A stretch of DNA of 36,711 nucleotides. It comes from Theionarchaea archaeon. Its GTDB lineage: Archaea; Methanobacteriota_B; Thermococci; Methanofastidiosales; SZ-28-30. Shown piece by piece: positions 2,957-23,729 of this stretch. Made by a program: the position numbers and the translations under genes. The stretch is from positions 1 through 36,711 of the forward strand of contig JACVGW010000001.1 in NCBI GenBank assembly GCA_018992565.1, written 5' to 3'. A model generated the notes under the pieces. The model saw nothing but the letters and a program-made list of their open reading frames with translations. It was not told the origin of the DNA and did not search any database. Each line of letters opens with the position of its first letter. The first letter of the stretch is position 1.

Positions 2957-3748
2957 ATGGATACAGCTGCGCTCCAGGATCTTGCCACTGCAATCAGCAA
3001 AACCTCACGAATTGTCTCTCTAACAGGAGCTGGTATCTCTGTGGCTTCTGGCATTCCTGATTTCAGGTCGGAAGGAGGATTGTGGACCCGCTATGATCCT
3101 TCACTCTACGCATCCTACTCGAGGTTTGTTGAGGACCCTTCATACTTCTGGGAGATGCACATAGAGGTCATGCATCTCATTGACAAAGCAAGGCCCAACC
3201 CTGCACACAGAGCACTGGCCCATCTAGAAGAAGGAGGCCTCCTCAAGGGTGTAATTACCCAGAATATTGATGGACTGCACCAGGATGCAGGATGCAGCAC
3301 TGTGTACGAGCTGCACGGTACCAACAGGACGTGTTCCTGCATTGCATGTGGAAGGCAATATCCAACAAGAGAGATTGCTGCTCATATGTTCAGCTTCCAG
3401 AAAAAAGACCTCATCAGAAAGATGCGTAAGGGAGATGAAATTCCCACCTGTGAATGTGGTGGATGGATAAAACCAGATGTCATCCTCTTTGGCGAGAAAA
3501 TGCCGTACGAGACTGTTATAGCTGCAGAAGAACTTGCATCGTCCTGTGAGCTTCTCCTGGTAATAGGAACAAGTCTCAACGTTCAGCCCGCTGCATCCCT
3601 ACCTTTCACTACCAAGCACAGTGGGGGCTCAATAGCCATTATCAATAGAGAACCCACCATCCTGGACAGGATAGCCGACCACATGGTTCTGGGAATGGCA
3701 GAAGAAATCCTCCCTGACCTGGTGAAAAGAGTGGGCAGTACTATCTGA
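2957..3748 (+). CDS. cobB: Sir2-family NAD-dependent protein deacylase
   Basis: GAGISVASGIPDFRS, TQNIDGLH, ELHG, Zn-binding CIAC...CECG, KPDVILFGE, GTSL and NRE motifs. TATA ttataa at 2930-2935. Confidence 0.93.
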   Translation: MDTAALQDLATAISKTSRIVSLTGAGISVASGIPDFRSEGGLWTRYDPSLYASYSRFVEDPSYFWEMHIEVMHLIDKARPNPAHRALAHLEEGGLLKGVITQNIDGLHQDAGCSTVYELHGTNRTCSCIACGRQYPTREIAAHMFSFQKKDLIRKMRKGDEIPTCECGGWIKPDVILFGEKMPYETVIAAEELASSCELLLVIGTSLNVQPAASLPFTTKHSGGSIAIINREPTILDRIADHMVLGMAEEILPDLVKRVGSTI

Positions 3749-4559
3749 GTGCAGATCTCACCTTTTCTGGAGTCAGAATACCATACTCAGTGATAAACCC
3801 TCTGAAGTATTTGAGAGGAGTTCCATCAAAGTAGTAATTCTTCACTCGAATATTCTCATGTCCTTCAACGAGGACTTCATCAGGGTCTTTTTCTTCAATA
3901 GTGACATCTCGTCTGGTAAATTTGCTGGTAGAGCATGCAACATACGTGGGGAAACACTTTGCCAGCAACTTCGTACCGATCTTATTGATAACATAATGGG
4001 GAGTAACTGAATCTGCACCTACCAGGACAAAATCTGGGTTGAACAGGGAGGCAGCAGCATCCACTATGAAAATCACTTCTATGCCATTTGCAGCCAGCGA
4101 TTCTGCCAGTAATTTCCCTTCGTAGTTTGGTCTGCTCTCTGTGACAATTAGGTAGAATGGATTTTCCTTATAGGCATGGATTAAAATCTTTTCCACTGTA
4201 GAGCTTCTGCTGTGTGTGAGCACAGTGGCTCCCTTTCTGATGAGGGAGGTGCCGTACTGTACGATGATTTCCTCTGATTTTTTCAACAGCTGAACCCTTT
4301 CTTTGGTGGTGGTTCTCACACGTTCCAGTGCTTCTTCCAGAGTCTTCCCTTCTACTGCTGCATCCAGGACGTGGAAGAGCTCATTCTGAAGGGAAACCAT
4401 GCTCCGGTGAGCATCCGAAATCTTGGAGCACTGTTCTTCAATGAGGCGGAGGAACTGCTCTCTTGACAGAAAATCCTTCTCAGTAAATCGGTACAAATAG
4501 ACGAGGGCTTTTTCAGTCAACACCGCGGCTCCAGTTACGTTATCCTCTTCAATGCTCAT
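3741..4559 (-). CDS. eIF-2B alpha/beta/delta-like (aIF2B / ribose-bisphosphate isomerase superfamily) protein
   Basis: LTHSRSSTV, ESRPNYEG, VGADSV, NKIGT, NYYFDGTP and ITEYG motifs. Confidence 0.85.
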   Translation of the reverse strand: MSIEEDNVTGAAVLTEKALVYLYRFTEKDFLSREQFLRLIEEQCSKISDAHRSMVSLQNELFHVLDAAVEGKTLEEALERVRTTTKERVQLLKKSEEIIVQYGTSLIRKGATVLTHSRSSTVEKILIHAYKENPFYLIVTESRPNYEGKLLAESLAANGIEVIFIVDAAASLFNPDFVLVGADSVTPHYVINKIGTKLLAKCFPTYVACSTSKFTRRDVTIEEKDPDEVLVEGHENIRVKNYYFDGTPLKYFRGFITEYGILTPEKVRSALR

Positions 4560-4730
4560 GCATAGGGGTTCTTTTCATTGTATAAGAGTGTTTGGTTCAC
4601 GTGCACAGAAAGTGACGTTGACATGCTGTGGTCCGTCAATCAGTAAGTGGGGAGGGCCATTAACACTCCGAGAACGGGACCAGATTCCCAATAACAAAAC
4701 ACATATAAACCTGAACTGACATCGTAGTCT

Positions 4731-5180
4731 ATGGCAGATATTATCGTCAACAGGAAGAGCTTTAAACAGCTTCCCAAGATGACCAGGGACTTCATGAAGC
4801 GAGCTTCTTCAGAAATTGACATCATAACTCGTTCTTTCACCTGGGCAGATGATGAGACTCTGGAAACCATGTACGCTCTTATAAACAAAGGCGTTAAGAT
4901 TAACATTGTAGGCAAATATGGAGATGAATCGAGAGAAGTTATAAGACAGCTGATAAAATTAGGAGCTACAGTAAAGCTTCATGAATTCGCCGGCGAAACC
5001 CGTTTTATGATCATAGATGAGAAAGAGGTTGTTTTCGCTATCAGGGAACCTCTCACTCCAACAGAACGACATTATGTTGGTATTCTGATGAAAGATGAAT
5101 CCACGTCACGAACAGTGAAACAGTACGTGTTCGATGCAATATTCAAGGAGGCTGAAGAAGCGTCATATGTCGTCTCTTGA
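4731..5180 (+). CDS. Stand-alone TrmB-like effector/PLD-fold domain protein (no HTH); first gene of the bsh operon
   Basis: Pattern A..EIDI...GVKINIV...LGATVK...RFMIIDEKEVVF resembles the TrmB sugar-binding/PLD-like fold. TATA catataaa at 4702-4709. The 3' end overlaps the bshC start. Confidence 0.6.
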   Translation: MADIIVNRKSFKQLPKMTRDFMKRASSEIDIITRSFTWADDETLETMYALINKGVKINIVGKYGDESREVIRQLIKLGATVKLHEFAGETRFMIIDEKEVVFAIREPLTPTERHYVGILMKDESTSRTVKQYVFDAIFKEAEEASYVVS

Positions 5181-6687
5181 TCCCTCCCTCTATCTTTCAG
5201 GATTGCCTCTGGATTATCTCACGAACTTCTCCAGGGTTGCTTCCTATTTCTCGGCAGATTACCAGAGGATAGTACCAAAGAAGCATGCTGTGTCTGATGA
5301 AGTAATTTCTTCCATTGAGCGTTATAACCGGGAGATAGGAGCAAGTTCGCTGGTGCTTGAAAACGTTGCTCGGCTGCAGGAGAGGTCTCCAGTGGTAACT
5401 GGACAACAGCCTTGCCTGCTGACAGGACCACTGTTCGTCATATACAAGGCACTGACAGCTGTTCTCATGGCAGAGAAGTGCGGAACAGTTCCTGTATTCT
5501 GGAATGCTTCTGAAGATGATGATGCGGGAGAAGTGAACCACATCTGGGTTCACAACGGAGAGCTTGAGGAGGTTTCTGTGGCCCTGGAACCTCGACCCTT
5601 CTTCACTGCAACCATCAGCGTCCAGGAGAAAACGCACCTGATCACGATGCTCACAGAACTGACACCCCCCACCGAGTTCCGTCAGACCACTCTGAACATG
5701 ATCACTGCCTGCTCGAGGGATTTCTCCAAAATGTTTTCTCAACTCCTGTCCTCTTTATGCAGCGAATACGGACTGATCATGGTAGAACCGTATCTTTTCT
5801 GTGAGCAGACCGTTCCTCTCTACGAGGAATTGATAGCTCATCCTTTAAAGGCTGTAGCACTGGTACATAAAGCAGGCAGCAGCCTTGAAAAAATGGGATA
5901 TAAGAGACAGGTGCACAAGCAAGCAGACATGTGCAGCTTTTTCTTGCTCAGAAATGGGTACCGGCATTCAGTGACCTATGATGGGATGTTCCATGTGGGA
6001 AGTGAATCGCTCACCACTGGTGAAATGCTGGCTCACTTGCATGATCATCCGGACCAGGTCGTGTCATCAGTGATTTCCAGGCCACTTGTCCAGGATTTCC
6101 TCCTGTCAACAGGAGCATACTGCGCAGGACCGGGCGAAGTGTCGTATTTCGCCCAGATGAAAGGTGTATACGAATTCTTCAAGGTGGAAGAGCCTGCCAT
6201 CGTCCCACGACTCGGTGCAACTCTCATAGAACCCAAGGTGCAGAAAGTGTTGGATAAGTATGCTCTAGAGGTTCCCGAACTCAGAGAGCCAGAGAAAGTA
6301 GTAAAATCAATAGTGAAAGGGAATACTGGAGACTTCTTTGAAGCACAAAAGAGAGAGGTTCTTCAAATCATGAATGGAATCCAGGAATATATTACACATG
6401 TAGACAGCAGTCTGAAAAAGGCAGGCGCAGCAATGACCAATCACATTCTGCAGGATCTTGACAAATTGGAAGATAAGACAGCCTCTGCACTTAAGAGAAA
6501 GAACGAAGATGCACTGCAACAGGTAGTAAAAGCCTCTTCAAATTTATTTCCTCATAATACTCTCCAGGAGAGGATGCTCAACATATTTCAGTATTTGATC
6601 CGGTATAACACCGCTGTGGAGACAATATACGATTCATTTCGCGATGCCCTGCCAGGAGAGCATCTCATTCTCTACCTTGGTGATTGA
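5167..6687 (+). CDS. bshC: Bacillithiol biosynthesis cysteine-adding enzyme BshC
   Basis: VVTGQQPCLLTGPLFVIYKALT, PVFWNASEDDD, GPGEVSYFAQ, LFP..TLQER. The likely start is ATG 5167 (MSSLDP) rather than 5134. Confidence 0.9.
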   Translation: MSSLDPSLYLSGLPLDYLTNFSRVASYFSADYQRIVPKKHAVSDEVISSIERYNREIGASSLVLENVARLQERSPVVTGQQPCLLTGPLFVIYKALTAVLMAEKCGTVPVFWNASEDDDAGEVNHIWVHNGELEEVSVALEPRPFFTATISVQEKTHLITMLTELTPPTEFRQTTLNMITACSRDFSKMFSQLLSSLCSEYGLIMVEPYLFCEQTVPLYEELIAHPLKAVALVHKAGSSLEKMGYKRQVHKQADMCSFFLLRNGYRHSVTYDGMFHVGSESLTTGEMLAHLHDHPDQVVSSVISRPLVQDFLLSTGAYCAGPGEVSYFAQMKGVYEFFKVEEPAIVPRLGATLIEPKVQKVLDKYALEVPELREPEKVVKSIVKGNTGDFFEAQKREVLQIMNGIQEYITHVDSSLKKAGAAMTNHILQDLDKLEDKTASALKRKNEDALQQVVKASSNLFPHNTLQERMLNIFQYLIRYNTAVETIYDSFRDALPGEHLILYLGD

Positions 6688-7350
6688 ATGGACATTCTTG
6701 TTTTCTCACCGCACCCTGATGATGCAGAACTGGGAGCAGGCGGGTTCCTCCTGGAGATGCGAAAGAGGGGGTATAGTACAGGAATTGTGGATCTAACCGC
6801 TGGAGAACTGAGCAGTACTGCCACTGCTGAAACTCGCGCAGCAGAAGCGAAAAAAGCTTCTCACCTTCTGGGTTTGGAAGTGAGGGAGAACCTGAACTTT
6901 AAAGACGGTAGTCTTTCAGATTCATATGATTTCCGATTACAGGTAGCTGAAATTATCAGGAAGAATAAACCCCGGGTAGTGTTGACCCCTTTTTATGAAG
7001 ATCGTCATCCCGATCATGTGGCCTGCTCTCTCATAGTGAAGGCTTCAGTCCTCTACGCACGCCTCAGGAAAGTGGGAGAGCCTCACTATATCAAGTATTT
7101 GTATTACTACATGTTGAATACCCCCTTTGTTCCAACCTATATCGTGGACATCTCGGATTCCTTCGAAAAGAAAATGGAAGTCCTCTCCTGCTATCACTCT
7201 CAATTTGGGGCAGAGGTCCCCCTTCTCAGAGACTACATACCTCATGTGAGAGCAAAAGCTGAATATTATGGATCACTGATAAATGTGGCATATGGCGAAC
7301 CATTTAGAGCAGAAGGATTTTTAAAAGTAAGTGATCCTGTTAATCCATGA
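6688..7350 (+). CDS. bshB1: N-acetylglucosaminyl-malate deacetylase BshB1 (PIG-L family)
   Basis: PHPDDAELGAGG, DLTAGE, DRHPDH and SQF motifs. ATG directly follows the bshC stop. Confidence 0.9.
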   Translation: MDILVFSPHPDDAELGAGGFLLEMRKRGYSTGIVDLTAGELSSTATAETRAAEAKKASHLLGLEVRENLNFKDGSLSDSYDFRLQVAEIIRKNKPRVVLTPFYEDRHPDHVACSLIVKASVLYARLRKVGEPHYIKYLYYYMLNTPFVPTYIVDISDSFEKKMEVLSCYHSQFGAEVPLLRDYIPHVRAKAEYYGSLINVAYGEPFRAEGFLKVSDPVNP

Positions 7351-8429
7351 GAATTGGGATCACCTGTTACCCCACCTTTGGGGGGAGTGGAGTCTTGGCC
7401 TCAGAACTGGGCCGACAGCTTTCCAAGAAACATTCCGTGCACTTCATCTGCTATGCACAGCCTTTCCGCCTGGAAGGGACAGATATCCCTTTTCACAAAG
7501 TTGACGTTCTGGCATACCCTCTCTTCAAGTTCCCCCCGTACACACTGGCTCTGGCATCCAAGATGCTGGAGGTCGTTCAGGAGGAGGACCTGGACATTCT
7601 TCACGTTCATTATGCTGTTCCTCATTCAACATCTGCATACCTGGCCAAGAAGCTGCTCAAGGATTCTATCAAGGTGGTAACCACGCTGCATGGAACTGAT
7701 GTCCAGCTGGTAGGGCTAGATCCTTCATATTACAGTATAACGAAGTTTTCTATTGAGCAGGCGGATGGTGTCTCTGCAGTCTCAGAATCGCTGAAGAATT
7801 CCACCATGCAGAAATTCAACATTGAAAAGCATATGCGGGTCATATACAACTTTGTCGACCCTAACAGGTACTGGACAGAAGATCATGAAAAGAAGATAGT
7901 CACTCACATGTCCAATTTCAGGGAGGTTAAGAGGATTCCTGATGTCATTGATACCTTCTGCAAAATCTCTGCTCTGATACCGGCAGAATTGTATCTGGTG
8001 GGAGATGGTCCTGAAATACCTTTGGCTGAAGAAATGGTCAAAAAATGCAAAATACAGGACAGGACAACGTTTTTTGGAAATATACGCTCCATAGAGGAAA
8101 TACTTGCCAGGACAGATGTATTCCTTTTGCCCAGCGGACAGGAAAGCTTTGGGCTTGCAGCCCTGGAAGCTATGGCTTCTTCAGCAGCGGTCATAGCCAC
8201 CAATGTGGGAGGACTTCCTGAAGTCATTGATCACGAAGAAACAGGGTTCTTGTGCGCACTGGGAGACACGCAGACCATGGCAGAATACGCAGTGGAGCTG
8301 CTTCGTGATGAAAGCTATAGAAAGGAAATCGGCAGGAAAGCCAGGAAAAAGGTTGAAGAGCGGTTCACTCCTGGAGTTATTGTACCTCAGTATGAAGCGT
8401 TCTATGAATCAGTGCTAACCGAGTCATAG
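7347..8429 (+). CDS. bshA: N-acetyl-alpha-D-glucosaminyl L-malate synthase BshA (GT4)
   Basis: MRIGITCYPTFGGSGVLASELG, PPYTLALASKM, HVHYAVPH, TTLHGTD, SNFREVKR, ESFGLAALEAMA. ATGA overlap with bshB1. Confidence 0.95.
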   Translation: MRIGITCYPTFGGSGVLASELGRQLSKKHSVHFICYAQPFRLEGTDIPFHKVDVLAYPLFKFPPYTLALASKMLEVVQEEDLDILHVHYAVPHSTSAYLAKKLLKDSIKVVTTLHGTDVQLVGLDPSYYSITKFSIEQADGVSAVSESLKNSTMQKFNIEKHMRVIYNFVDPNRYWTEDHEKKIVTHMSNFREVKRIPDVIDTFCKISALIPAELYLVGDGPEIPLAEEMVKKCKIQDRTTFFGNIRSIEEILARTDVFLLPSGQESFGLAALEAMASSAAVIATNVGGLPEVIDHEETGFLCALGDTQTMAEYAVELLRDESYRKEIGRKARKKVEERFTPGVIVPQYEAFYESVLTES

Positions 8430-8522
8430 TATGCACTGCTGCGTGGATACTGAATAGAGAATCACGACGCCAGCACGAGGTAACAGCTTTACTGCAAGAA
8501 TAAGACAAAAAAAGGAAAAGGA

Positions 8523-9434
8523 TTATATTTCTACTTGCAGCCCCAGCTCATCCTGGAGCTCCTTGTATCTATTGCGGATGGTGACCTCAGTGACATTGGC
8601 CACATCTGAGACTTCCCGCTGTGTTTTTCTCTCGTCCTCCAAGATAGAAGCGATGTAGAGTGAAGCCGCCGCGATGCCTTTTGGACTCCTGCCAGAGAGA
8701 AGCTCTCTGTCAATTGCCTCCTTCAGGATTTCCGTGGCTTTCCTCTGAACTGCAGGGGATACACCCAGCTGAGAGGCAAACCGAGGCAGGTAATCCATGG
8801 GATTTGTGGGAGGGAGGTTAAAGCCCAATTCCCGCATAATATAGCGGTAATCCTTGGCAATCTCCTTTTTTTCCACTCTGGCATGCTCACTTATCTCATC
8901 CAGAGTCCGTGGCACCCTGCACTGACGACATGCAGCATAGAGGCAGGCAGATGCCATCCCTTCTATGGATCTCCCTCTGATCAAGTCTTCTTCCAGACAC
9001 CGCCTGTACAGCACTGCTGCTGCTTCCCGAATATTCTTGGGTAATTTCAGATGAGAGGACAGGCGCACGATCTCAGTCAAAGCAAAAGCTAGGTTGCGAG
9101 CAGCGGAAGAGGAAACCTTCATCCTGCTCTGCCATTTGCGCATCCTGTAAACCTGCGCCCTGCGCCTTGGAGAAAGATCTCTGCCATGAACATCCTTATT
9201 TCTCCAATCGATCTCTGTGGAAAGGCCCTTGTCATGGATCATATATGTCATGGGCGCACCAGTGCGCTCCCTTTCGTCTCTCTGTTCAGAGTCAAAAGCT
9301 CTCCACTCTGGACCCATATCGAGTATTCCTTCCTCGATCACCAACCCACAGTTGCTACACACTATCTCTGCCCTATCATAGTCCTGAACAAGGCCTTTGC
9401 TCTTGCATTCAGGACATATCTTGTCACGTAACAT
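8523..9434 (-). CDS. tfb: Transcription initiation factor IIB
   Basis: Zn ribbon CPEC...CSNCG, GPEWRAF B-reader, two cyclin repeats, [15 protein letters not shown] aggtga at 9439-9444 (minus strand). Confidence 0.97.
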
Positions 9435-9549
9435 AACGTCACCTAATAATATGGGTTAATCTGATTGTCAATGTACCCTACTTATTAGAATTCAATGTGT
9501 CCCGGGAACCCATTCCACTTCTCATGTTCCATATCTTCTTATAGCAGAA

Positions 9550-9568
9550 CCTATATAAAGCTTTCGGT
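9550..9568 (-). promoter_or_regulatory. BRE-TATA promoter of tfb
   Basis: Minus strand reads ccgaaagctttatatagg, a purine-rich BRE followed by TTTATATA. Confidence 0.65.
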
Positions 9569-9658
9569 TGCCATAGCTATCAATGGAACAGAAATGGAGT
9601 GTATATCCCTTTTTATCTCACATCATTTCTTTTCTGGTACTCTTTAGGAAAAGACGCC

Positions 9659-10972
9659 TCAAATATTGTCTTTCAGAAGCTTCTTCATCAACTCTAACTT
9701 CTTTTCTCTGGCAAATCGCAGTTTATTCTTCTTCTTTAGCTCAACCTGTCGTGTAAGAAGCATCGTATCAGGCTCCAGGTTCTCATCCACCATAACATGA
9801 GATCCCACAATAGAATTAGGACCAATCCTCATGCCCGGCATGATGGAGGCGTTGATACCTGTCTTGCAGTTCTCTCCCATAATACACCCGAACTTGTCCA
9901 TTCCTGTCTCCACAGACTGTGAATTGATTTTCACCTTCACTGGTTGTTCATCAAAGCGGAAGTTGGCAGTGACTGTCCCCGATCCAAAAGAACATCCATC
10001 CAGTATGATAGAATCTCCCACATAATTGGTGTGAAACCAGCAATCAGCTCCAATGTAACAATTCTTTACCTCTGTAGAGAAGCCAACCACTGTTCGTGCT
10101 CCGATATGCGAGTAGTCTCTCACCAGAGAATTGTTGCCAATAATGCATCCAGGCCCCAAATAGGCAGGTCCATGAACAGTGGCATACTCAAAGACTCGGA
10201 CGTCCTCTTCAATTATGACCTTCCCTTTTATGGTGGCTTTTTCAGAAATCTCCGCAGTTTCTGCAACCCAGGGCTGTGCCCGGTCCATAAAGTAGCGCGT
10301 AGCTTCAAAGATGTGCCAGGGATACTTGACAGCAGTCCAGAATCCATCGTACATCACGGGCGAAAACGTGAACCCTTCCTTTATCATGGAAGTGAGTGCC
10401 TTCTCATATACGTCATCATGGGCACTTTCTGTCTTTTCCAGGAATGCAAGCAGCGTATCTGCATCCCTGTGGTAGTGTACAACCAGGTTCACCAGATCAG
10501 AGGGCTCATTCCCCTCTCCAGGTTTTTCCACAATGCCCTTGACTCTGCCCTCATCAAGTATCAAATACCCGCCTGGGAAGTATTTCTGCACTTTGTATCC
10601 CAGGATGCAAGCGTCGCTTTCACTTTCCCGCGCAGCGAACATATTGCGGTATGCAGAAGAATCAAACAGGTCATTGGGGTTGACAACAAGAATTTCATTC
10701 CCTGAGATGACATCTTTTGCAGAAAGGAGAGCATCTGCCATTCCAAGAGGATGTTTTTGCACCACGTAGTCATGGGAGTCTCCAGCAACTTCTTTAATAT
10801 CTGAAATATTCTCAGGGTTAGACACAATGACAATATCATCCACTCCTGATTCCTGAGCCAAGTCAATCTGATGCAGAATGAGTTCTTTGCCCAGGAACTT
10901 GAGCAGACACTTTTCTTTCACAATGGGAAACATCCGTTTCCCTACACCACCTGCAAGGAAGACGAGCTTCAT
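9659..10972 (-). CDS. Bifunctional sugar-1-phosphate nucleotidylyltransferase/acetyltransferase (archaeal GlmU-like)
   Basis: LAGGVGKRMFP...K and IVEKP nucleotidyltransferase motifs, followed by hexapeptide left-handed beta-helix repeats (NYVGDSII, TANFRFD, KTGINASI). ATGA overlap with the upstream mutase. Confidence 0.85.
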   Translation of the reverse strand: MKLVFLAGGVGKRMFPIVKEKCLLKFLGKELILHQIDLAQESGVDDIVIVSNPENISDIKEVAGDSHDYVVQKHPLGMADALLSAKDVISGNEILVVNPNDLFDSSAYRNMFAARESESDACILGYKVQKYFPGGYLILDEGRVKGIVEKPGEGNEPSDLVNLVVHYHRDADTLLAFLEKTESAHDDVYEKALTSMIKEGFTFSPVMYDGFWTAVKYPWHIFEATRYFMDRAQPWVAETAEISEKATIKGKVIIEEDVRVFEYATVHGPAYLGPGCIIGNNSLVRDYSHIGARTVVGFSTEVKNCYIGADCWFHTNYVGDSIILDGCSFGSGTVTANFRFDEQPVKVKINSQSVETGMDKFGCIMGENCKTGINASIMPGMRIGPNSIVGSHVMVDENLEPDTMLLTRQVELKKKNKLRFAREKKLELMKKLLKDNI

Positions 10973-12324
10973 GGATCCACCTTCTCGAGAGCTTTTTCTA
11001 CCATTTGGTTTCCTTCATTCAAAAAGGTTTCCATGGCAGATAGAGATTCGGACTCACAGAGCACTCGTATCACAGGTTCTGTTCCGCTGGGCCTGATGAG
11101 GAGCCAGGAATCATCAAATTCGATGCGAATCCCATCCAACATGTTAACATCGGAGGGAGAAAGCTCGGAGAGAGAAGACTGTACCCTTTTCATGACGCGC
11201 TCTTTCTCGTGGTTGGGGCAGCGGACGCTGGATTTGGCGAAATGCATCGTGGGCAGCGAGGCAATGAACTGTCGAATCTGAGAAGGATGATCAATATTAC
11301 TGAGCAAGAAAAGAGCAGCATACAGAGAATCAGGATGCATACCTATCTCAGGCAAGATATAAACACCGACCTGCTCTACTCCGATGCAGGCATTTTTCTC
11401 CTTCAAGAGCTGCGCAACATGGACATCTCCTACCTTTCCCCGTTCAACTGTCCCCCCTGCTTTTCCTGCGGCACAATCCAGAAGTCGCCCTGTCTCCACT
11501 GTGGTGGCCACCACCTTTCTGGAGGATTCCTTCACAACCAAATAGGAAATATAAGCTATCATCTCATTATATCCAAGAAATCCCTGATTATCACAGAATA
11601 CGACCCTGTCAGCATCTCCATCGAAACATACAGCCAGATCTCCCCCTTCATCTCTGAGGTATTGTATGGTTTCCTTCAGGGTGTCTTCCCTGGGCTCTGA
11701 AGGTCGGGTGGGAAACCTCCCATCAGGAATATCATTTACAGGCAGCACAGAGATCCCCATCTTCTCGAATAACTGCGAAGCGATGTGGGAAGCAGCCCCA
11801 TTTCCTGGATCAACTACCACCTTCAGCGAAGTATCTACTGAGATTCTACCTCTGACTGCTTCAAAATAATGAGTATGGGCATTTTCATGTTTTTTCACAT
11901 GCCCCAGACTGCTCCAGGGGACTGTCCTGAATGCTTCATCAAAATAAATCCTTTCAACTAGCTGTTCCTGCTCAACAGAATACCCAATCGTTGAAGGATT
12001 CCAGAGTTTGACCCCATTGAACTCAGGGGGGTTGTGAGAAGCAGTGATCATCATGCCAGAATCCATTTTCAGTTCTCTTGTCAGGTAAGCCAGACAAGGT
12101 GTTGGTAATATCCCCAGATCTACCACATTCACGCCTGTTGAGAGAACTCCAGCAGTCAAGCTGCTCTTGATCATGTCCCTCGACAGCCGGGGATCGCTTG
12201 CTACACACACCTGAGAACCTACAGGGATTGTTGTACCCACAGCTTTCCCAAGATTCAACATACTCTCACTGGTGATCTCTTCATTGATCACTCCCCTCAC
12301 TCCGCTGGTGCCAAATAGCCTCAT
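10969..12324 (-). CDS. glmM: Phosphoglucosamine mutase / phosphohexomutase (GlmM/PMM family)
   Basis: RLFGTSGVRG, TASHNP (phosphoserine), FDGDADR (metal site), IRPSGTEP. Exact sugar specificity cannot be determined from the sequence. Confidence 0.8.
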   Translation of the reverse strand: MRLFGTSGVRGVINEEITSESMLNLGKAVGTTIPVGSQVCVASDPRLSRDMIKSSLTAGVLSTGVNVVDLGILPTPCLAYLTRELKMDSGMMITASHNPPEFNGVKLWNPSTIGYSVEQEQLVERIYFDEAFRTVPWSSLGHVKKHENAHTHYFEAVRGRISVDTSLKVVVDPGNGAASHIASQLFEKMGISVLPVNDIPDGRFPTRPSEPREDTLKETIQYLRDEGGDLAVCFDGDADRVVFCDNQGFLGYNEMIAYISYLVVKESSRKVVATTVETGRLLDCAAGKAGGTVERGKVGDVHVAQLLKEKNACIGVEQVGVYILPEIGMHPDSLYAALFLLSNIDHPSQIRQFIASLPTMHFAKSSVRCPNHEKERVMKRVQSSLSELSPSDVNMLDGIRIEFDDSWLLIRPSGTEPVIRVLCESESLSAMETFLNEGNQMVEKALEKVDP

Positions 12325-21767: not shown

Positions 21768-23729
21768 TTAGATTTGAAGAGCGGTGTTAGCACCTTCCTG
21801 AACTGCCCTCAAAATGGATTTTGGTTCAACGCAATCTCCAATTGCCCTCAGTTTGTAGAAATCTGCTTCAATCAGTTCATCCAGAATCTTTCTCTCAGGG
21901 TAGAAACCCACCGCCAGGACTACTGCATCTGCCTTGAGTGTGTGTTCTCCGGAGGAATCTGCAATGACTACACCCTCCTTAACGATCTTCACTGCTCTTG
22001 AACCAGGCAGCATTACCACTCCAACATCTTTCAATGCTTCGCACATGAAATACCGGGCAGAAGCTCCCATATCAGGACATATAACAGGCAACTGTTCAAG
22101 AATAGTGACCTTTCCTCCTTTTTCTGCAATGAATTCTGCTGTTTCCGCACCTACTCGACCTCCACCGATAACAACTACAGCTCCCTTGGGTGTTGCAGTA
22201 CCTTCCAGAACATCCTGAAAACTGCACACGTGTTCAGAATCAGCTCCCGGAATTGACAACGTGGCAGGGACTGCTCCAGTCGCAACAATGACCACGTCAG
22301 GAGACTGACCCACAACGAAATCTGTGGTGACTTCCTTCCCCAGGACTTTTGTGACTCCTAGGGTTTCGAGCTGACGGATCTGCCAGTCAATGAATTCCTG
22401 CACTTCTTCTTTATGAGGCGGCATAACGGCTAGTAGCATCTGTCCTCCCAATTGGCCCTCCCTTTCATACAGTGTCACATTATGTCCTCGTAATTGCGCA
22501 TACATTGCTGCTGTCATCCCAGCAGGACCTCCCCCGATGACCATGACCTTCTTTGGTGTCTTCACCTTTTTGATTCGGAATATCCTTTCTCTTCCCAGTT
22601 CTGGGTTGATGGCACACGTACACGCTGCAAACCGACTGGTATCCAGATCCAGACAATGGTTGCAAGCAATGCATTTTCTTATGTCCTTGACTCTGCCTTC
22701 CTCTGCTTTCTTTGGCAATTCTGGGTCTGCTAGCAGTGCTCTTGCCATTCCCACAAGGTCTAGCTTCCCTTCGGATAGCGCCAGTTCTGCCAGATAGGGA
22801 TCATTCATCCTTCCCACTCCAATGACAGGAACATCAACCACTTCCTTCACTCCGGCAGACAGTCTCAGGTGCACCCCACGGGGAATTCGCATTGGAGGTA
22901 TGTTCCAATTGGTGGCTTCCAGTATTGAGCTTCCTGCAGAGACATTGAGAATGTCAGCGCCTGCCTCCACGAAATGGGGAGCCTGTTTCTTGGCTTCTTC
23001 CAGCTGAATCCCTGTAGAACCGAAGTAATCATCACCATTCATACGAAATGACACCGGAAAAGACTCTCCAGTTTCAGCCCGCACTTGCTCAAGTATCTCC
23101 AGCGCAAAGCGCATTCTTCCTTCAAGACTCCCACCGTATGCATCCGTTCTCTTGTTAGTATGCGGAGACAGGAATTGGTTAATCAGGTACGAATGGGCAC
23201 CGTGAATCTCTACCATGTCAAATCCAGCCTTCTTAATTCTCTCGGCCGCTGCTCCATAAGCTTCTACCAGATCTTTGATATCGCGCATCGACAGCCTGCG
23301 TGGAGTAATCATGGCCTTACCATGAGCTCCCATGAAAGCCCCTGCATGAGCCACAGGGGAAGGTGCTACTGGTTCAGAACCGTACACAGATTCAGACAGA
23401 CGTCTGCCACTGTGTATCATCTGCACGCCTGCTTTTGCCTTGTGGCCATGGAGAGCTCTTGCCAATTCTTTCAATCCGGGCATGAGATCATCACTGTAGA
23501 CTCCCAACTGGTTTGGCCTGTATTTGGCTTCAGGAACGATATAGGCACCAGCAGTCAAGATAAGTCCTGCACCGCCTTCCGCCCTTTTTTCCAAATAGTC
23601 TATCATTCGAGGTGTAACACTGCCATCATAATCTGCATATCTCACAATCATGGGTTCCATGACAATTCTGTTTTTCAATTCCATGCCTTTCACAGACAGA
23701 GAACTGAACAGCATCTGAAAGCTATCCAT
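21768..23729 (-). CDS. NADH:flavin oxidoreductase (old yellow enzyme TIM barrel + 4Fe-4S + FAD/NAD domains; 2,4-dienoyl-CoA/enoate reductase-like)
   Basis: LKNRIVM, EIHGAHSYLINQFLSP..N.RTDAYGGS, CIACNHC..CAINP, GGGPAG, GGGRVG. SD aggtga. Confidence 0.92.
   Translation of the reverse strand: MDSFQMLFSSLSVKGMELKNRIVMEPMIVRYADYDGSVTPRMIDYLEKRAEGGAGLILTAGAYIVPEAKYRPNQLGVYSDDLMPGLKELARALHGHKAKAGVQMIHSGRRLSESVYGSEPVAPSPVAHAGAFMGAHGKAMITPRRLSMRDIKDLVEAYGAAAERIKKAGFDMVEIHGAHSYLINQFLSPHTNKRTDAYGGSLEGRMRFALEILEQVRAETGESFPVSFRMNGDDYFGSTGIQLEEAKKQAPHFVEAGADILNVSAGSSILEATNWNIPPMRIPRGVHLRLSAGVKEVVDVPVIGVGRMNDPYLAELALSEGKLDLVGMARALLADPELPKKAEEGRVKDIRKCIACNHCLDLDTSRFAACTCAINPELGRERIFRIKKVKTPKKVMVIGGGPAGMTAAMYAQLRGHNVTLYEREGQLGGQMLLAVMPPHKEEVQEFIDWQIRQLETLGVTKVLGKEVTTDFVVGQSPDVVIVATGAVPATLSIPGADSEHVCSFQDVLEGTATPKGAVVVIGGGRVGAETAEFIAEKGGKVTILEQLPVICPDMGASARYFMCEALKDVGVVMLPGSRAVKIVKEGVVIADSSGEHTLKADAVVLAVGFYPERKILDELIEADFYKLRAIGDCVEPKSILRAVQEGANTALQI

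Follow-up and report, generated by a model that had tools for sequence, protein, structure and literature searches.

A canonical bacillithiol biosynthesis operon, probably native and functional, in a Theionarchaea-type archaeon

A 36,711-nt stretch of archaeal DNA, referred to here as the window, carries a predicted complete gene set for bacillithiol biosynthesis, arranged as a tight bshC-bshB1-bshA operon behind a small additional gene. The window makes up the opening 36.7 kb of a contig of 101,118 nt, which belongs to a 2.8-Mb metagenome bin (154 contigs, 88.4% complete, 1.6% contamination). We consider it likely that the locus is a native, anciently acquired and probably functional bacillithiol operon of an uncultured, sediment-dwelling archaeon of the Theionarchaea type, belonging to the class Thermococci and related to Methanofastidiosa at the level of order. 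Below, the window's genome is labelled G000, two other species of the same genus G001 and G002, and a genome from the second genus of the family G003.

The open reading frames (ORFs) of the window were listed and scanned with NCBIfam models, which have curated equivalog cut-offs, and with Pfam. Four co-directional genes occupy 4731-8429 (Table 1). BshA scored 484.3 bits against TIGR03999 (cut-off 273.7), the runner-up family being TIGR03088 at 117 bits. The protein has the two-domain build of GT4 (GT-B) transferases, with Glyco_transf_4 (PF13439) and Glycos_transf_1 (PF00534) domains, and matched the Protein Data Bank (PDB) entries 2jjm and 3mbo over residues 1-358 (E about 1e-109) as well as 5d00 (E 5e-96). 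BshB1, a PF02585 protein, scored 219.7 bits against TIGR04001 (cut-off 182.5), as compared to 42.4 with the BshB2 model and 26.2 with the MshB model, and its matches in the PDB were 1uan (E 2.9e-47), 2ixd (E 1e-42) and 6p2t (E 1e-33). In the alignment with 2ixd, residues H9, D12 and H110 lined up with H12, D15 and H113, the zinc ligands of Bacillus cereus BC1534 (PMC5790435, cited here and below for the available portion of its text). BshC scored 346.4 bits against TIGR03998 (cut-off 265.8) and contains both the Rossmann-like domain PF10079 (214.8 bits) and the coiled-coil domain PF24850 (92.6 bits). Its sole PDB match was B. subtilis BshC (4wbd; E 2.6e-37, residues 43-501), and the 506 residues counted from the ATG at 5167 agree with the size of BshC homologues in the databases.

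Table 1. Features of the operon and its surroundings (positions in the window)
Feature	Position	Strand	Description
Candidate archaeal promoter	4695-4712	+	Purine-rich, A-rich stretch resembling a B recognition element (BRE), plus TATA-like ATATAAA
Small gene	4731-5180	+	149 aa, TrmB-effector-like / PLD-fold
bshC	5167-6687 (open frame from 5134)	+	506 aa, putative cysteine-adding enzyme
bshB1	6688-7350	+	220 aa, predicted GlcNAc-malate deacetylase
bshA	7347-8429	+	360 aa, predicted UDP-GlcNAc:L-malate GlcNAc-transferase, GT4
tfb (archaeal transcription factor B)	8523-9434	-	NF001658 478.3 bits (cut-off 384); TFIIB repeats and zinc ribbon
glmU-like gene	9659-10972	-	Archaeal type; TIGR03992 279.7 bits, just under the cut-off of 292.1
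glmM	10969-12324	-	Archaeal type; TIGR03990 454.3 bits (cut-off 439)

The four genes leave no space between them. The bshC start overlaps the end of the small gene by 14 nt, the bshC stop codon (6685-6687) abuts the bshB1 ATG, and bshB1 shares its last 4 nt with bshA (ATGA, 7347-7350). The archaeal tfb gene, which lies outside the pathway, is convergent with bshA and ends 93 nt past its stop codon. All three predicted enzymes being at equivalog level, the gene set is, by family assignment, complete and of the canonical type; for this reason, it is reasonable to read the locus as one for making bacillithiol or a close derivative. The original prediction, made from the window alone, had described three tightly coupled bsh genes next to tfb and had proposed model searches for the three equivalogs. 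Those searches and the tfb neighbour bear it out, as does the coupling, but the fourth gene had been missed, and the boundary at 4731, taken as that of the operon's bshC, is instead the start of the separate 149-aa ORF.

The candidate promoter precedes the small gene, with the centre of its TATA-like element ~25 nt ahead of the ATG at 4731. This 18-mer was invariant in the window, G001 and G002, whereas the flanking intergenic sequence diverged. Archaeal TATA boxes keep a typical spacing to the transcript start. Because of this usual spacing, the position of the predicted promoter implies a transcript that would be leaderless or nearly so. The TATA promoter originally proposed thus survives as a conserved TATA-like motif, though as one placed before the small gene and not before bshC. 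Two metatranscriptome runs yielded contigs over 4883-5358 and tfb only; the operon parts left uncovered are uninformative. The first of these contigs (476 nt, depth 3.7) extends from the small gene into bshC and is a weak hint that the two may be co-transcribed.

The surroundings of the operon recur in other assemblies. On a 124-kb contig of G001, ORFs of matching size follow in the same order, namely Sir2-sized and eIF2B-like-sized frames, the small gene, bshC-B-A, tfb, and glmU-, glmM- and gyrA-sized frames; the identities of the small gene, bshC-B-A and tfb are backed by sequence matches, and the remainder are assigned by size and order. The small gene, bshC-B-A and tfb also stand together in G002. 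An independent contig of 9,471 nt from a mangrove metagenome covered 4300-9306 with 4 differences; it comes from a single DNA run not flagged as a possible source. Across 7 studies, 18 DNA runs contained at least 0.97 of the words sampled from 4600-9500, and all but one of these runs were flagged as possible sources. The composition of the operon is that of its genome: the tetranucleotide distance of 4731-8429 fell at the 39th percentile of 675 genome windows, and the codon use of bshC and bshA at the 54th-55th percentile among genome ORFs of similar length. There were no meaningful flanking repeats in 3500-9700, just short imperfect two-copy ones, no tRNA in the window, and no integrase or transposase among the ORFs scanned. 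Based on the contiguity, the native composition and the lack of meaningful flanking repeats and of tRNA, chimerism and recent insertion are rejected; the contig is archaeal and the bshA-tfb junction is real. This junction, where the original prediction had seen the risk of a chimeric assembly, is bridged in G001, G002 and the 9,471-nt contig. Its description of a domesticated operon free of mobile-element scars likewise agrees with the repeat and tRNA searches, with the native tetranucleotide and codon use, and with the TATA-like 18-mer kept in three species.

The distribution of the operon was assessed by counting as canonical any BshC match above the TIGR03998 cut-off. Canonical BshC was found in 4/4 genomes of the window's family (Theionarchaea/Methanofastidiosia), in 0/30 other genomes of the order and in 0/99 from the rest of the phylum. 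Thus, the gene occurred in 4 of the 133 genomes of the phylum that were searched, all of one family (0/129 outside it). Beyond the phylum, the counts were 2/301 in a class sample around a Bathyarchaeota genome and 10/301 in a sample of the Asgard phylum. All three bsh genes are intact and kept in each of the four family genomes. Among 5.8 billion proteins searched, ~32 clusters were 50-100% identical to the window BshC, those with a taxon name being Theionarchaea or Methanofastidiosia, after which the identity fell to at most 37%. NCBI and JGI already name Theionarchaea proteins BshC.

Relatives outside the family were gathered in a scan of species-representative genomes, from which the best 80 of 204 were kept. 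Gene order was C-B-A in 26 of the 33 archaea-labelled loci, C-B in 4 and C alone in 3, several of these last seven being shorter than 5 kb. The 47 bacteria-labelled loci were more varied (C-B-A 17, C-A-B 2, C-A 5, C-B 3, C alone 20). Identity to the window proteins outside the family was about 27-37% for BshC, 32-47% for BshB1 and 40-54% for BshA. Within the family, BshA was 57% identical between the window and G003, and 80-89% among the species of the genus. This conservation of BshA indicates purifying selection, which would extend to the whole set, including the putative cysteine-adding enzyme. No close bacterial donor was found: the nearest BshC relatives outside the family, from other sediment archaea (Bathyarchaeota and a few Asgard) and Aerophobetes-type bacteria, were just 30-37% identical. 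The patchy distribution in the phylum fits horizontal acquisition, and the event would be old. The horizontal origin that had been proposed therefore stands with regard to distribution, confined as the genes are to one family, but lacks a bacterial donor above 37% BshC identity.

Trees were built for BshC (79 rows; quick search with the posterior mean site frequency model) and BshA (48 rows); both are unrooted, and the sampled sequences all share two motifs with the query. In the BshC tree, the window's genus fell in a group of 42 rows with a Shimodaira-Hasegawa-like approximate likelihood ratio (SH-aLRT) support of 90. This group also contains the canonical Asgard sequences, G003, Bathyarchaeota and nine Aerophobetes- or 'Clostridia'-labelled bins, and is apart from Paenibacillus, Latescibacterota/Gemmatimonadota, Abyssobacteria and others. 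The BshA tree gave the same grouping, with 30 rows and a weak support of 61. A constrained BshC tree uniting the four family sequences was 19 log-likelihood units above the free quick tree, with a p value in the approximately unbiased test (p-AU) of 0.816; because of this, a single acquisition in the family ancestor is compatible with the data. An archaea-only BshC clade is absent from the free tree, in which Aerophobetes-type rows are nested inside; uniting all 33 archaeal rows cost 18 log-likelihood units but was not rejected (p-AU 0.234 for a group defined after viewing the tree). The comparison with bacterial homologues that had been called for thus yields a cassette shared with Aerophobetes-type bacteria, though the relatives are remote and the trees unrooted.

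The bacterial bins in this group deserve separate mention. BshC and BshA of the Aerophobetes- or 'Clostridia'-labelled bins L018, L020, L024, L026, L029, L030 and L040 branch from within the archaeal cassettes, where they are sister to Bathyarchaeota, and the fuller of these loci have the gene order C-A-B, not C-B-A. Such nesting suggests cross-domain exchange of the cassette within sediment communities.

The product of the small first gene matched PF11495 (Regulator_TrmB) at 25.6 bits (cut-off 22.2) as a stand-alone domain without a DNA-binding domain, scored 22.7 bits against PF13091 (PLDc_2), below the cut-off of 27, and had no match in NCBIfam. The possibility that it is a part of bshC was rejected, the two being separate ORFs in different reading frames and of different families. 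Identity was 81% or higher for all 29 homologues found, and wherever a taxon name was given it was Theionarchaea or Methanofastidiosia. The gene is present in G000, G001 and G002 and was found neither in G003 nor in any other bsh cassette examined; by this sampling, it is confined to the genus-level clade of the window. An ORF upstream of bshC in G003 was rejected as a homologue (BLASTP E 43), its 26% identity being alignment noise. The AlphaFold model of the small protein was poor, with a predicted local distance difference test (pLDDT) score of 58.9. Foldseek matched it best to NucT and Zucchini, which are single-domain phospholipase D (PLD) proteins, to the C-terminal domain of TrmBL2 and to the sugar-binding domain of TrmB, and its look-alikes in the Atlas were small archaeal TrmB-domain proteins; these model-based resemblances are leads only. 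Judged by eye, the HKD-type motif (HxK...D) is degenerate, with Glu and Arg replacing His and Lys. Because of this degeneracy, the likeliest reading is that the small protein is non-catalytic and binds a ligand.

We then considered what might feed the pathway and use its product. The genome encodes a malic enzyme and a subunit of the fumarase beta type, which could act as a source of malate. DinB-fold enzymes include bacillithiol and mycothiol transferases, and for this reason the two DinB_2 proteins of the genome that were above the cut-off are candidate users of bacillithiol by analogy. DinB_2 proteins above the cut-off were found in all four family genomes (2, 2, 3 and 6 matches) and in 0/37 other genomes of the order and class, a co-occurrence with bsh genes that constitutes one evolutionary association and not 41 independent points. 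At one Bathyarchaeota locus, a gene for a 160-aa DinB_2 protein (L019:5294-5776, minus strand) stands divergently upstream of bshC; homologues, grouped by BLAST only, occur at 7 further Bathyarchaeota loci, and proteins of this type are candidates for a pathway-linked transferase that depends on bacillithiol. Two more PIG-L paralogues are encoded in the window's genome (G000:C49:23984-24346 and G000:C6:12242-12610; open frames of 244 and 235 aa), which could be BshB2/Bca-like amidases or chitobiose deacetylases.

According to the reading that we favour, BshA would couple the GlcNAc of UDP-GlcNAc to L-malate, BshB1, as a zinc deacetylase, would take off the acetyl group, and BshC would add cysteine to give Cys-GlcN-malate, that is bacillithiol, possibly modified further. 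Transcription from the archaeal BRE/TATA promoter would give a message with little or no leader, whose genes are translationally coupled. The cassette would have entered the ancestor of the family long ago, been inherited vertically thereafter and acquired the composition of its genome. It would be part of a C-B-A pool found in anoxic-sediment archaea (Bathyarchaeota and a minority of Asgard) and in Aerophobetes-like bacteria. The thiol would probably be used by thiol transferases of the DinB type and in the general buffering of redox state or metals, and the small first gene may encode a lineage-specific, non-catalytic, ligand-binding accessory or regulator.

Several observations weigh against this reading. 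In the window's own genome, which is 88% complete, the best match to YpdA/Bdr (TIGR04018) reached 84.3 bits against a cut-off of 339.9, BrxC/YtxJ (TIGR04019) and the BrxA/B family PF06491 each had 0 matches, and neither an Ldh_1- nor an Ldh_2-type malate dehydrogenase was found. DinB_2 is not specific to bacillithiol, as weak matches to MST and MDMPI illustrate, and the 145-aa DinB_2 protein of the genome had no detectable similarity to the bsh-linked one of Bathyarchaeota (E 0.32). The free BshC and BshA trees do not place G003 with the window's genus. The RNA-library contig over 4883-5358 may stem from DNA, and contigs cannot show a transcript. As to the literature, the BshC reaction has never been reconstituted in vitro, even for bacteria, according to the available text of PMC5790435, and no detection of bacillithiol in any archaeon is on record, according to that of PMC7278568. 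The expectation that this archaeon makes bacillithiol or a derivative draws on a complete canonical gene set, for a product that had not been detected in archaea as of the latter review.

Two rival explanations concern the origin of the operon. The first holds that the contig is mis-binned or chimeric, a bacterial operon having been fused to archaeal genes, as might be feared of a metagenome bin in 154 contigs with 1.6% contamination. With archaeal genes flanking both sides on the 101-kb contig, the same junctions in the assemblies of two other species and in the independent 9.5-kb contig, and tetranucleotide and codon use typical of the genome, this explanation is refuted for practical purposes. 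The other holds that the operon was recently and directly acquired from bacteria such as Firmicutes and has yet to be integrated into archaeal physiology. Bacillithiol is indeed best known from Firmicutes and other bacteria (PMC5790435), and BshC occurs in just 4 of the 133 genomes searched in the phylum. Nevertheless, BshC of Paenibacillus is only 27-30% identical to that of the window, and no BshC outside the family exceeds 37%, while the clade itself spans 50-100%. Moreover, the composition is native, the promoter motif is kept in three species, the neighbourhood is syntenic across species, and the constraint of the family to one clade was not rejected. Both trees group the window with archaeal and Aerophobetes cassettes, not with Paenibacillus. 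Recent acquisition is therefore strongly disfavoured.

Two further explanations accept the operon as native and differ as to its product. One is that the enzymes are active but make something other than bacillithiol: an N-methylated or otherwise modified form, a conjugate with an acceptor other than L-malate, or one with an amino acid other than cysteine. We regard this as rather unlikely. No Ldh-type malate dehydrogenase was found, but malate could come from the malic enzyme and the fumarase-type subunit. Ahead of bshC there is an additional, translationally coupled gene, and its lineage-specific protein might contribute to a difference in product; however, the gene is missing from G003 and from every other cassette examined, and would thus be dispensable for the core chemistry. 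BshC is just 27-37% identical to relatives outside the family, its chemistry has never been reconstituted (PMC5790435), and NmbA methylates bacillithiol in many bacteria (PMC12719100, cited here and below for the available portion of its text). By contrast, all three proteins score well above equivalog cut-offs that were built to split the enzymes from paralogues, and BshA is a full-length match to characterised Bacillus enzymes (E about 1e-110). It is improbable that the genes are retained for another role, such as a GlcN-malate-type glycoconjugate or a compatible solute without thiol function, or are silent. The redox partners Bdr, BrxA/B and BrxC, none of which was found in the genome, and the restriction of RNA-library contigs to 4883-5358 of the operon would agree with such a reading, but the three genes are intact in all four family genomes and recur in ~32 database clusters, the identity of BshA within the genus indicates purifying selection, and DinB_2 candidates co-occur with the cassette.

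The operon can be compared with several known systems. Relative to the bacterial enzymes BshA, BshB1(B2) and BshC of Bacillus subtilis, B. anthracis and Staphylococcus aureus, the window proteins belong to the same three families at equivalog level, match the solved structures of BshA (2jjm, 3mbo, 5d00), BshB (2ixd, 6p2t) and BshC (4wbd) over their full length, and keep the three zinc ligands of BshB. The B. subtilis genes are split, bshB1 and bshA sharing an operon and bshC lying elsewhere (PMC5790435). By contrast, the window has one tight bshC-bshB1-bshA operon with a predicted archaeal TATA promoter and an extra small first gene, and the Firmicutes-type Bdr/YpdA, BrxA/B and YtxJ were not found in its genome. 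Mycothiol synthesis by MshA, MshB and MshC of Actinobacteria follows the same logic, in which a GT4 transferase is followed by a PIG-L deacetylase and cysteine addition (PMC7278568). The window proteins nonetheless fall a long way short of the cut-offs of the mycothiol models (MshA, 55 bits against 462.5; MshB, 26.2 against 224.4). MshC belongs to another enzyme family than BshC.

The nearest counterparts are the cassettes of Bathyarchaeota, of a minority of Asgard (Heimdall-type) and of Aerophobetes-like bacteria (L018-L064). Their spacing is similarly tight and the C-B-A order is shared by most archaea-labelled loci, but their BshC and BshA are just 28-37% and 42-54% identical to those of the window, respectively, and none has the small TrmB-effector-like gene; the sampled Bathyarchaeota locus has the divergent DinB_2 gene in its place. 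More distant are the divergent Asgard-type clusters (L106-L108), a type already reported by Rawat and Maupin-Furlow in 2020, in which an equivalog-level BshA stands beside a BshC-family protein and for which the same class of product is proposed. The BshC-like proteins of that branch have 539-579 aa, score 73-112 bits against TIGR03998 (cut-off 265.8) and have no PF24850 match, unlike the 506-aa window BshC with its 346.4 bits and both domains. BshC had a single match in the window's genome, and no copy of the divergent type was found there. In the divergent clusters, at L106:1864-4643, L107:1975-5109 and L108:1727-4483 (Asgard and Bathyarchaeota-class genomes G461, G297 and G577), the BshC-like protein, with PF10079 alone, adjoins a GT4 protein that passes the BshA equivalog cut-off at 277-358 bits, and L107 adds a PIG-L fragment. 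Sub-cut-off BshC matches occurred in 161/301 Asgard genomes and in 61/301 of the class sample around a Bathyarchaeota genome; judged by these matches, the divergent BshC-like system is far commoner in archaea than the canonical one.

The idea of archaeal bacillithiol is already in print. Rawat and Maupin-Furlow reported in 2020 that InterPro held 39 archaeal hits each for BshA and BshC, mostly from Asgard, together with just two archaeal YpdA homologues, and proposed that archaea may make bacillithiol (PMC7278568, available text). This review and the existing BshC annotations render outdated the background given in the original prediction, which placed bacillithiol mainly in bacteria and other thiols in the archaea studied. 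Our literature search, which left subscription journals and supplements outside its reach, found no paper tying bacillithiol biosynthesis to Theionarchaea or Bathyarchaeota; the sole co-mention, PMC9426492, is unrelated. RefSeq leaves out metagenome bins of the present kind. The operon of the window contradicts a RefSeq-based paper of 2025, the available text of which states that no archaeon has the full pathway (PMC12719100). Overall, the finding is sound but incremental, the idea being in print, the genes being annotated and the pathway being predicted from them. Specific to this locus are the canonical bacterial-type enzymes, as opposed to the divergent Asgard ones, the Thermococci-class lineage, the family-wide cassette and the lineage-specific fourth gene.

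For most uncultured archaea, we know of no low-molecular-weight thiol that has been established and, to our knowledge, bacillithiol has been measured in bacteria only. A native canonical bshCBA operon in a Thermococci-class lineage would extend the genomic case for archaeal bacillithiol past Asgard. Because the predicted enzymes are bacterial-type, expressing and assaying them should pose fewer difficulties than with their divergent Asgard counterparts. The sharing of the cassette by sediment archaea and Aerophobetes-like bacteria points to an exchange of thiol metabolism in anoxic sediment. A bolder proposal, which we consider doubtful, is that bacillithiol is both produced and used by Theionarchaea in strictly anoxic, sulfidic settings with none of the known bacterial recycling enzymes, and that the small protein works directly with BshC. 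If true, there would be an archaeal redox or sulfur-carrier system based on bacillithiol and of unknown kind. The small protein might then bind GlcN-malate or an unidentified activated cysteine donor, and would provide a handle on the never-reconstituted BshC reaction. That reaction may need an additional protein or substrate (PMC5790435).

Just past tfb are the glmU-like gene and glmM, whose predicted products make UDP-GlcNAc, from which BshA would draw its sugar; ORFs that match them in size and order occur in G001, and this linkage was not seen in G002 or G003. Other genes of the window encode GyrA, a geranylgeranyl-reductase-family protein, a PurP-like ligase and an archaeal prenyltransferase (449 bits, cut-off 281). 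A 653-aa Fe-S flavoenzyme of the Old-Yellow-Enzyme/FadH type (21768-23729, minus strand) has a C-terminal part resembling pyridine-nucleotide-disulfide reductases and is below all equivalog cut-offs, scoring 544 bits as compared to 825 for the BaiCD-like model. The 668-aa protein encoded at 761-2767 has a weak exonuclease III-like signal at its C-terminus alone, and its N-terminal two thirds are unmatched.

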